The translations under genes were made by a program, and so were the position numbers. DNA of 64,000 bases, taken from assembly GCA_963797555.1 (NCBI GenBank), contig CAWCPV010000004.1:1-64000 (forward strand), in the 5' to 3' direction. The notes under the pieces are model-generated. The model was not told the origin of the DNA and searched no databases. It worked only from the letters and a program-made list of their open reading frames with translations. This document shows positions 57,875 to 58,997 of the stretch, in pieces. Numbering within the stretch: position 1 is the first letter of the stretch; each line of letters starts with the position of its first letter. The DNA comes from an uncultured Gammaproteobacteria bacterium. GTDB taxonomy: Bacteria; Pseudomonadota; Gammaproteobacteria; CAWCPV01.

Positions 57875-58997
57875 ATGATCGTTGTGCTGGACACGGACGT
57901 TATCGTCGCCGCTGTTGTCAGTTCCGACGGGGCATCCCGTTTCCTAGTGTGCCCGGCATGGGCCAAGACTTGTGACCTGAGAGGAGGTCACCGGAGAGAG
58001 TGACGACAACCGTAGTGAAGCGCAAGGGGGAAGCCGCGAGGCCAACCTGAAAGAAGCGCGGAGCAAAGGCACGAGCGCAGGAACACGAACAGGCAGTGAG
58101 GCCGGGTGCGGGCGATGAGCGTGCTAGGGAACGCGAAATCCAACGGTCACCGAAAGACGCATCAGGTAGAGCCTGGCGGCACGGGCCGAGAGTCTTGGCA
58201 CCTTACCCGGGGAGATCTCCCGAGTGAGAGCTTGGGAGAAGTCAGCAGAGGCCATATGAGCGAGGAGACCCTCTGCAATGGGGGGTGTGGAGCGAAGGGC
58301 CGAAGGACCGAGAGACAGGCTAGTCCGAGCAGACGCTGTGGTGACCGCGAAGTCGTCTGAAACCGAGGGCCGTTGCAACTGCGGCAGCCATCCCTTGGGC
58401 GGTGGAGCGAAAGATAGTGGAGCTATCGGACGCGAGACTGGAGGCGGCAAGGAAACCGTGGCGGAAGGAGGATGAATGAAAGCGCTGAATGAGAGCTTGA
58501 TGGAACGGGTAGTCTCCTGGTTCCATCGGATCTCGCGGCCGCCTGATGGCCGCCAGGTCCAACCGCCGGATGCGGAAAACCGCTTGTCCGGTGGTGTGGG
58601 AGGGGTGACGGGCGCAATCCCGTCACCTCGACCCGATCTTCGGGAGATCGGCCTCGGCCGCTTGGCCGCGGCAGCCTCGGTGCCGCTCCTGCTCGAGTAT
58701 GATGCCGTGCTGAAGCGTCCGGACACGCTGCGGCGCGCTGGCGGCACGGTGGAGGACATGGATGTGATCCTTGATCAGCTGGCCGCGACCCTGCAGCCAG
58801 TGCCGATTTGGTATCTGTGGCGACCGATGGTGCGTGACGCCAATGACGATATGGTGCTGGAGGCGGCGGCTAACGGCGCGGCGACGCATCTCGTGACGTT
58901 CAACATTCGCGATTTCGGGGAGGCGCCGCGCCGGTTCGGTGTTGAACTCTGCCGGCCCGCCGATCTGGCGAGGAGATTGCGCGATGGACAAGAGTAA
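57875..58997 (+). CDS. PIN-domain toxin split by a group II intron (exon 1 57875-57946, exon 2 58638-58997; 143 aa spliced)
   Basis: MIVVLDTDVIVAAVVSSDGASRFL joins in frame to LREIG...SVPLLLEY.AVL.R...WRP..RD.NDDMVLEAA.NG.A..LVTFN.RDF. Confidence 0.88.
57947..58637 (+). ncRNA. Group II intron, class C-like, with the RT ORF almost entirely deleted
   Basis: 5' GTGTGCCCGGCATGG; DV AACCGCCGGATGCGGAAAACCGCTTGTCCGGTGGT (CGC triad); DVI GTGACGGG-CGCAAT-CCCGTCAC...CCCGAT 3' end; RT remnant LMERVVS. Confidence 0.9.

Follow-up and report, generated by a model that had tools for sequence, protein, structure and literature searches.

Does a toxin gene that is interrupted by a mobile intron make a second protein from its unspliced RNA? 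The question is raised by a locus in a 64,000-nucleotide (nt) stretch of DNA from an uncultured Gammaproteobacteria bacterium (assembly GCA_963797555.1, contig CAWCPV010000004.1, positions 1 to 64,000; hereafter the window). There, a group II intron divides a gene for a PIN_3-family toxin, and an open reading frame (ORF) of 173 codons begins within the intron, runs through its domains V and VI (DV and DVI) and continues through the second part of the toxin gene. An original prediction, made from the letters of the window, suggested that this ORF might yield a second isoform. We conclude that it is very probably an accidental by-product of a non-autonomous, ORF-deleted, class C-like intron that landed in the PIN_3 toxin gene. 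A functional second isoform finds no positive support and is, in our judgement, very unlikely. The main parts of the locus are as follows, in window positions.

57875..57946 (+): PIN_3 toxin exon 1, MIVVLDTDVIVAAVVSSDGASRFL, with strand S1 and its catalytic Asp; alternative ATG at 57863
57947..58637 (+): ORF-less group II intron, class C-like, 691 nt, delimited by Rfam models and an alignment of copies
58476..58997 (+): read-through ORF, 173 amino acids (aa) in the ORF list, with 54 intron codons followed by 119 exon-2 codons
58638..58997 (+): PIN_3 toxin exon 2, LREIGLGRL...RDGQE, stop TAA at 58995-58997; PIN_3 E 4.1e-9

Origin of the read-through frame

The first 54 codons of the ORF fall into a remnant of an intron-encoded protein and a run of structured intron RNA. 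Four features define the remnant.

58466..58478 (+): Shine-Dalgarno AGGAGG (58466-58471) and ATG 58476 with a 4-nt spacer, original initiation site of the intron-encoded protein that was lost
58476..58517 (+): codons 1 to 14 of the reverse transcriptase/maturase that the intron once encoded, MKALNESLMERVVS, in frame 0; compared with the N-termini of L112 and L043
58509..58519 (+): deletion junction, placed within about 10 nt; both frames fit there
58517..58546 (+): last nine codons, LVPSDLAAA, and native stop TGA 58544-58546, frame +2 relative to ATG 58476

The original prediction was right that AGGAGG and ATG 58476 open a reverse transcriptase remnant, as MKALNESLMERVVS resembles the N-termini of the intron proteins of two full-length relatives, MKVLNENLMEQILRPENL (L112) and MYESLMEQVVSEENL (L043). 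It was right also that the ORF then passes DV and DVI without a stop and enters exon 2 in frame. The distance from 58476 to 58638 is 162 nt, or 54 codons, so that the toxin frame is met exactly. Translated in frame +2, positions 58508-58546 read GSLLVPSDLAAA followed by a stop, and the intron proteins of relatives end in GLLTPSDFAPA, FLMPSDLAGR and LCVPSDLSTA. The TGA of the window copy sits 16 nt before DV, and the stop lies 15-17 nt before DV in nine of the ten full-length relatives examined.

A short series of steps accounts for this arrangement. The relatives encode, within domain IV, a reverse transcriptase/maturase without an endonuclease domain that ends 15-17 nt short of DV. An internal deletion spared the ribosome-binding site with 14 codons behind it and, at the other end, nine codons with the stop, and the native TGA is bypassed because the two remnants were joined out of frame (+2). 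The G+C-rich DV and DVI hold no stop in frame 0, which lets the ORF leave the 3´ end of the intron in every copy. Finally, the copy in the window lies between PIN codons 24 and 25, and it is because of this phase 0 insertion that the run-off happens to stay in the PIN frame.

How unusual is it for a frame to leave the intron in this way? Among 81 related loci with a complete DV-DVI region, the segment from DV to the 3´ splice site is free of stops in 67 for frame 0, 42 for frame 1 and 75 for frame 2. In one full-length relative (L103; oriented copy, 560-2071) the intron protein has lost its stop, and its frame continues across DV and DVI as far as a TGA at the 3´ intron boundary. Running out of the intron is the expected result of such a deletion, since DV and DVI seldom hold stops. 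Read-through into a host frame is no commoner than chance, as two frames are usually open and a one-in-three match to the host frame then follows.

The genome itself offers a direct comparison. Its assembly (5.35 Mb, 20 contigs, 84.6% complete) carries the same deleted intron in four copies, on contigs C4 (the window), C12, C3 and C20, and fragments of it on C5.

C4 (window): run-on after the intron of 119 codons; PIN exon 2, in frame
C12:28473-29128 and C20:121339-121994: run-on of 51 codons; out of frame with the following delta carbonic anhydrase gene
C3:202415-203111: run-on of 25 codons; no long frame crosses the site
C5:288172-288334 and C5:225780-225878: a 3´ fragment and a 5´ fragment of the deleted intron

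The flanks of the C12 and C20 copies are identical, so these two were counted as one site, leaving three independent sites in total. The deletion junction is the same in all four copies, and the 162-nt segment at the 3´ end is identical in three of them and differs by one base in C3; a single deletion event appears to lie behind them all. The remnant ORF leaves the intron in each of the four copies and meets the host frame at one of the three independent sites, which is the chance prediction. The warning that came with the original prediction, that a one-in-three coincidence might explain the frame, is in line with these sites and with the mostly open frames of DV and DVI. One further check that it proposed, whether homologous deleted introns preserve the frame, gave the opposite of what a selected isoform would call for. 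At the junction the degraded C5 copy has 10 nt fewer, and it has a remnant ORF of 40 aa that terminates within DVI. Two relatives that were deleted independently (L034 and L077) meet a stop before DV, 18 aa from the old start.

We also considered whether the 100% identity among copies could reflect selection on the peptide, and rejected this reading. The C3 and window copies differ at 28 positions in 57947-58300 and at only two in 58301-58637, and this near-identical block begins about 175 nt upstream of ATG 58476, as expected of a mosaic and not of a conserved coding region. The C3 copy as a whole, diverged over its first 350 nt and nearly identical thereafter, suggests exchange between intron copies. 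The C12 and C20 copies lack a 34-nt stretch (window 58313-58346 region). At C12:27770-29464 the intron is flanked on one side by a queC fragment that has the opposite strand and begins at the junction (QueC profile positions 69-147), and on the other by the delta carbonic anhydrase gene, which is on the strand of the intron; the whole queC-intron arrangement is present twice, on C12 and C20.

The intron, its target site and its relatives

Rfam covariance models match the window at 58030-58201 (D1D4-3, RF02001; 81.5 bits, cut-off 32), 58202-58300 (D1D4-1, RF01998; 40.3 bits, cut-off 35) and 58561-58637 (DV/DVI, RF00029; 40.0 bits, cut-off 40). The boundaries are those from which the four genomic copies align, exactly 57947 and 58637, beyond which they diverge; the intron begins there with GTGTG and ends with CCCGAT. 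With the covariance models, a 5´ GUGYG and a bulged A in DVI all present, 57947-58637 can be identified as a group II intron. Its excision would rebuild a continuous host gene, as the exons abut in the alignment at GASRFL-LREIGLGRL of uninterrupted homologues. Five features bear on its function and insertion.

58562..58595 (+): DV, first base triad CGC, from Rfam and the fold
58597..58635 (+): DVI, with bulged A 58631 as candidate branch point (bulged GA 58630-31 in the fold)
58125..58131 (+): putative exon-binding site 1 (EBS1), TAGGGAA, placed by alignment in the terminal loop of the D1D4-3 model
57940-57946 (+): intron-binding site 1 (IBS1), TTTCCTA, at the end of exon 1
57927..57946 (+): target motif in exon 1, hairpin ACGGG-GCAT-CCCGT (57927-57940) followed by TTCCTA; hairpin z -3.08

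The CGC triad of DV is one that we take to be typical of class C (IIC) introns. As read from the sequences, the putative EBS1 is complementary to the IBS1 of all three genomic sites, with 7, 5 and 5 pairs, and at all three a DNA hairpin ends 4-6 nt before the insertion point in the same layout. This layout is shared by relatives. The 5´ junction is defined at 22 related loci, and at 16 of these a hairpin of 5 bp or more ends 2-7 nt before it, as against 26 of 110 random controls. Most of these hairpins have no terminator T-run. Sharing among the exons is confined to the last four bases, which are CCTA at 11 of the 22 loci and xCTA at 16. The first base of the 3´ exon is C at 67 of 82 related loci. 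The proteins of relatives (L112, P0001) and a 444-aa intron protein of this genome carry the RVT_1 and GIIM domains only, with no endonuclease domain. The lineage can therefore be called class C-like by its target hairpin and protein domains.

An excerpt of a published account (PMC4424553) gives the hallmarks of class C introns as the lack of an endonuclease domain, insertion after a DNA stem-loop with a short IBS1, and recognition of a single base in the 3´ exon. The present lineage agrees in that the proteins of its relatives have no endonuclease domain, insertion occurs just after a DNA stem-loop and the 3´ exon would be recognized through one base. It differs from the introns of that excerpt in that the stem-loop is followed by (C)CTA and not by a T-run, and the window copy lies within a coding gene, where the motif is only weakly imitated by a 5-bp hairpin and a 6-nt spacer.

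The relatives were found by a DV pattern in genome and metagenome contigs, which yielded three genome loci and more than 121 metagenome loci, 80 of which were fetched. An earlier metagenome pattern, built on the start region of the intron protein, gave no match, and a search of 60 genomes of the same class for intron relatives returned short DV/DVI matches only. In a plasmid collection, one 72-nt DV/DVI match led to a full-length relative on a Paraburkholderia plasmid, which sits directly after a terminator hairpin with a T-run. The metagenome relatives include no fewer than five further ORF-less forms, each with a junction of its own (L034/L077, L055/L060/L046, L078/L057, L094 and L104), and loss of the ORF seems to recur in this intron lineage. 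No PIN exon was found beside any of 83 related intron loci, so the PIN gene is no recurrent target in that sample. A metagenome contig (run X1, record 6) crosses the same deletion junction with 19 differences, and the deleted form therefore exists outside this assembly too.

We hypothesize that a reverse transcriptase/maturase acting in trans, which would recognize a DNA hairpin followed by (C)CTA and then C, spread the deleted element to at least three sites. The ribosome-binding site and first codons would survive as the base of domain IV to which that protein binds, not for the sake of translation.

Contigs from four public sequencing runs, two of DNA and two of RNA, cover intron relatives, and small parts of exon 2 and of the antitoxin gene occur in one of the DNA runs; no run contains more than 0.16 of the words of the window. 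Three side observations come from these data. In a marsh metagenome (run X1), one low-depth DNA contig joins window position 58635 back to 57945, a step back of 691, and could represent two copies in tandem, insertion of one intron into the end of another, or a loop in the assembly. In an activated-sludge RNA library (run X15), a contig of an intron relative skips 290 nt (58266 to 58557, domains III to IV). Contigs of intron relatives in run X15 have high word depth, up to about 1489.

Spliced and unspliced transcripts of the toxin gene

What, then, would this gene produce? The PIN_3 profile is covered by exon 1 at positions 2-24 and by exon 2 at positions 32-115, and exon 2 scores 37.7 bits on its own (PF13470; cut-off 27). 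A search with exon 2 returned 172 proteins at E <= 0.001, the close ones being uninterrupted, 141-147 aa long and up to 92% identical. One intact homologue, P0003, also scores 30.4 bits against TIGR00305, above the cut-off of 29.15. A sequence search of solved structures found no relative of this PIN_3 group. In the alignment, acidic residues occupy nearly invariant columns at LDTD in exon 1 and at the E of LLEY, DANDD and NIRD in exon 2. Exon 1 thus holds the first PIN strand with its catalytic Asp, as the original prediction stated, and the 173-aa ORF lacks this first acidic position. A product that lacks S1 together with the invariant Asp after it may fairly be expected to be catalytically dead.

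57840..57867 (+): promoter-like site TTGACT-16-TATGCT, ending 7 nt before ATG 57875

This is the sole sigma-70-like site found in a scan of 57600-59500, which found none inside the intron. The promoter-like site lies upstream of exon 1, so the 173-aa ORF should be readable only from unspliced toxin transcripts. Spliced RNA would give an intact 143-aa toxin. From unspliced RNA the old start may give some 173-aa protein, which would be dead and probably poorly folded, with no selected role.

Three side observations concern the start of the toxin gene. Its ATG has no Shine-Dalgarno sequence and a -10-like hexamer lies 7 nt upstream; an intact locus in another genome (L155, 1030-1046) looks alike, and the toxin mRNA may be leaderless. 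The MLxH extensions at the N-termini of database homologues may be mis-called starts. Three PIN_3 homologues (P0011, P0036 and P0114) are 120-aa calls that begin exactly at the exon junction with ML[RH]E[IV]G, and their genes may be interrupted at the same spot.

The alternative that survives best differs from the accidental by-product only on whether splicing occurs, and otherwise mostly overlaps with it. The intron could be dead at this locus for want of a usable maturase, in which case the toxin gene would be inactivated and the 173-aa ORF would be an annotation artefact that is never made in any meaningful amount. Bacterial group II introns generally need their own protein for splicing in vivo, according to an excerpt of PMC2504315. 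No closely related protein-coding intron was found in the 84.6%-complete assembly, none exceeding about 50% protein identity to the relatives of the parent. With those relatives' proteins, the closest intron protein in the genome (444 aa, C4:644308-645555) shares no more than 47-50% identity. Against this, the parent may lie in the missing part of the assembly, both exons are undamaged, and on C4, at about 644-646 kb, there is a full-length intron of the same structural type by Rfam whose 444-aa reverse transcriptase/maturase (TIGR04416, 400.6 bits) is intact. We regard a dead intron as possible, if somewhat unlikely. The genome is rich in reverse transcriptases, with 19 RVT_1 and 8 maturase-domain matches, and clusters of them lie at 644-654 kb on C4 and at 205-223 kb on C5.

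A second alternative is the one that the original prediction put forward. Unspliced transcripts translated from ATG 58476 would give a dead PIN chimera that titrates the antitoxin or pairs with the toxin, and one locus would make opposite products depending on splicing. Several properties suit this proposal: the start is strong and predicted to be accessible, exon 2 supplies 119 of about 143 residues with the other conserved acidic positions, a gene caller also picks the 173-aa ORF (P0002; one member, one contig), and the product would be inactive as proposed. The ORF, however, arises mechanically in every copy of the element and meets the host frame at only one of three sites, and with this the claim of a selected dominant-negative partner or antitoxin decoy loses its footing. 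The remnant region, moreover, is conserved no more than the RNA around it.

Nor do homologues offer a parallel. Among the 120 homologues listed, only the call from the window combines 100% exon-2 identity with a length of 173 aa and no comparable chimera was seen, and none of 10 others inspected, including five of the longest, has an intron-derived N-terminus. Of those five long calls, three (P0017, P0034 and P0038) are upstream extensions of an intact exon-1 sequence, and two (P0068 and P0072) are otherwise aberrant gene calls.

The chimera is also modelled less confidently than an intact homologue. The 54 intron residues are translated structured RNA, and AlphaFold2 models residues 25-51 with a predicted local distance difference test (pLDDT) score below 50. 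For the chimera, mean pLDDT is 68.2 and the predicted template modelling (pTM) score is 0.59, compared with 89.0 and 0.85 for the intact homologue P0003, a comparison that gives no verdict on whether the chimera folds, because AlphaFold2 does not measure stability and because of where the input alignment had set the N-terminus of the chimera. In the P0003 model S1 comprises residues 7-9, and the exon junction falls inside the helix at residues 24-33, so that it cuts a helix of the fold. Taken with the evidence from copies and homologues, we consider a working chimera highly doubtful.

The third alternative concerns the gene downstream.

58970..59235 (+): antitoxin-like gene, 83 aa, ATG 58984; own GAGGAG 58970-58975 with an 8-nt spacer; weak HicB/ribbon-helix-helix-type matches

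All family matches of this gene are below curated cut-offs. Its ATG overlaps the PIN stop by 14 nt, and the uninterrupted locus L155 keeps the same toxin-antitoxin order and the same overlap. Ribosomes that read on from exon 1 into unspliced RNA would meet a stop at 58001-58003, about 980 nt upstream of the antitoxin ATG. Translation from the intron start might in that case keep ribosomes in exon 2, such that the overlapping antitoxin gene stays coupled when the transcript is unspliced. This idea, also raised by the original prediction, must contend with the Shine-Dalgarno sequence of the antitoxin gene itself, which lies 8 nt upstream of its ATG and makes coupling to PIN translation unnecessary. 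The read-through belongs to the mobile element at all of its sites and not to the PIN locus. We find the coupling device scarcely credible. A toxin-antitoxin switch that combines both ideas, with active PIN from spliced RNA when a maturase is present and, when none is, an S1-less PIN that binds antitoxin or toxin while ribosomes are carried into the antitoxin start, seems to us equally far-fetched; if true, it would tie the toxin/antitoxin balance to how active a mobile element is at another place in the genome.

Several observations weigh against an accidental by-product and deserve to be stated together. Initiation at ATG 58476 is plausible, given the strong AGGAGG, the 4-nt spacer and predicted accessibility; a thermodynamic fold of the intron leaves 58474-58479 unpaired (probability of pairing below 0.1) and the start region mostly so. 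The first 20 residues of the chimera are modelled as a strand and a helix with a pLDDT of about 65, which can be read as a stand-in for S1 and the following helix H1, a result that is not independent because the input alignment had lined those residues up with the S1 columns. Neither exon shows damage, nor does the antitoxin gene, and all three closely resemble their homologues; the locus may still be under selection, and an effect of the chimera is conceivable. Only three independent sites exist in the genome, so one in three is weak statistics. The full-length parent was not found in the 84.6%-complete assembly, which leaves mobilization and splicing in trans a hypothesis. No contig of the two RNA runs touches the PIN exons, and no run contains the locus.

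Comparison with known introns

Introns whose frames are continuous with a host exon have precedents in organelles, where intron ORFs are fused in frame to the upstream exon, yield a functional protein and are conserved. The present ORF shares with them the continuity between intron frame and host exon. It differs in that the exon is the downstream one and in that the intron-derived part is an out-of-frame reading of RNA sequence.

The closest published counterparts of the element as a whole are bacterial. Thermosynechococcus carries 17 ORF-less introns that share one common deletion, with N- and C-terminal ORF remnants on either side, and in T. elongatus mobilization in trans by the proteins of related introns has been shown (excerpt of PMC2882425). 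As in the TeI3 introns described there, a single internal deletion in domain IV has identical break-points in all copies and has spread to many sites. Mobilization in trans, however, is demonstrated in T. elongatus and only inferred here. TeI3 is not of class C, is mostly intergenic and has a remnant frame broken by an extra U (PMC2882425), whereas here the frame is shifted past the stop and out of the intron, in an element that is class C-like and for which the assembly yielded no closely related protein-coding copy.

Similarly, in Bacillus cereus E33L the ORF-less copies of B.c.I7 on plasmid pE33L466 retain just 13 bp from the beginning of the ORF and 28 bp from its end (excerpt of PMC2504315). 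Both systems consist of near-identical, multi-copy, ORF-less introns with remnants of the two ends of the reverse transcriptase ORF, which here measure about 42 and 30 nt. They differ in that the genome of E33L has a complete B.c.I7 copy, and the excerpted account of B.c.I7 reports no read-through into an exon (PMC2504315). Bacterial ORF-less introns are rare and nearly always occur alongside related protein-coding introns (excerpt of PMC4424553); in the present assembly no close parent was found. In the portions of the literature that our searches returned (for introns in toxin-antitoxin genes and for ORF-less derivatives), there is no account of a remnant ORF that enters a downstream exon. 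Multi-copy ORF-less derivatives are already described, to judge from the same portions, and this element adds a class C-like case within a toxin gene.

For annotation, the 173-aa "PIN domain protein" fuses translated intron RNA with half of a toxin, and to count it as a member of the protein family would be a mistake; in addition, intron searches based on proteins overlook ORF-less introns. For intron biology, the element provides a clear case of a class C-like lineage that repeatedly spawns ORF-less derivatives. Such derivatives still appear to move, in this case to a poor match of the hairpin-CCTA target within a coding gene. For toxin-antitoxin biology, the locus is a natural construct in which toxin output should depend on splicing, although use of this dependence by the cell has no support here.

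Upstream of the toxin gene, positions 55712-57738 of the window hold an ISL3-family transposase gene (469 aa, with DDE_Tnp_ISL3, helix-turn-helix and zinc ribbon domains) and, behind it, a second, partial version of the 3´ half of that gene. This duplicate is frame-shifted, and about 100 nt separate its end from the toxin promoter downstream.

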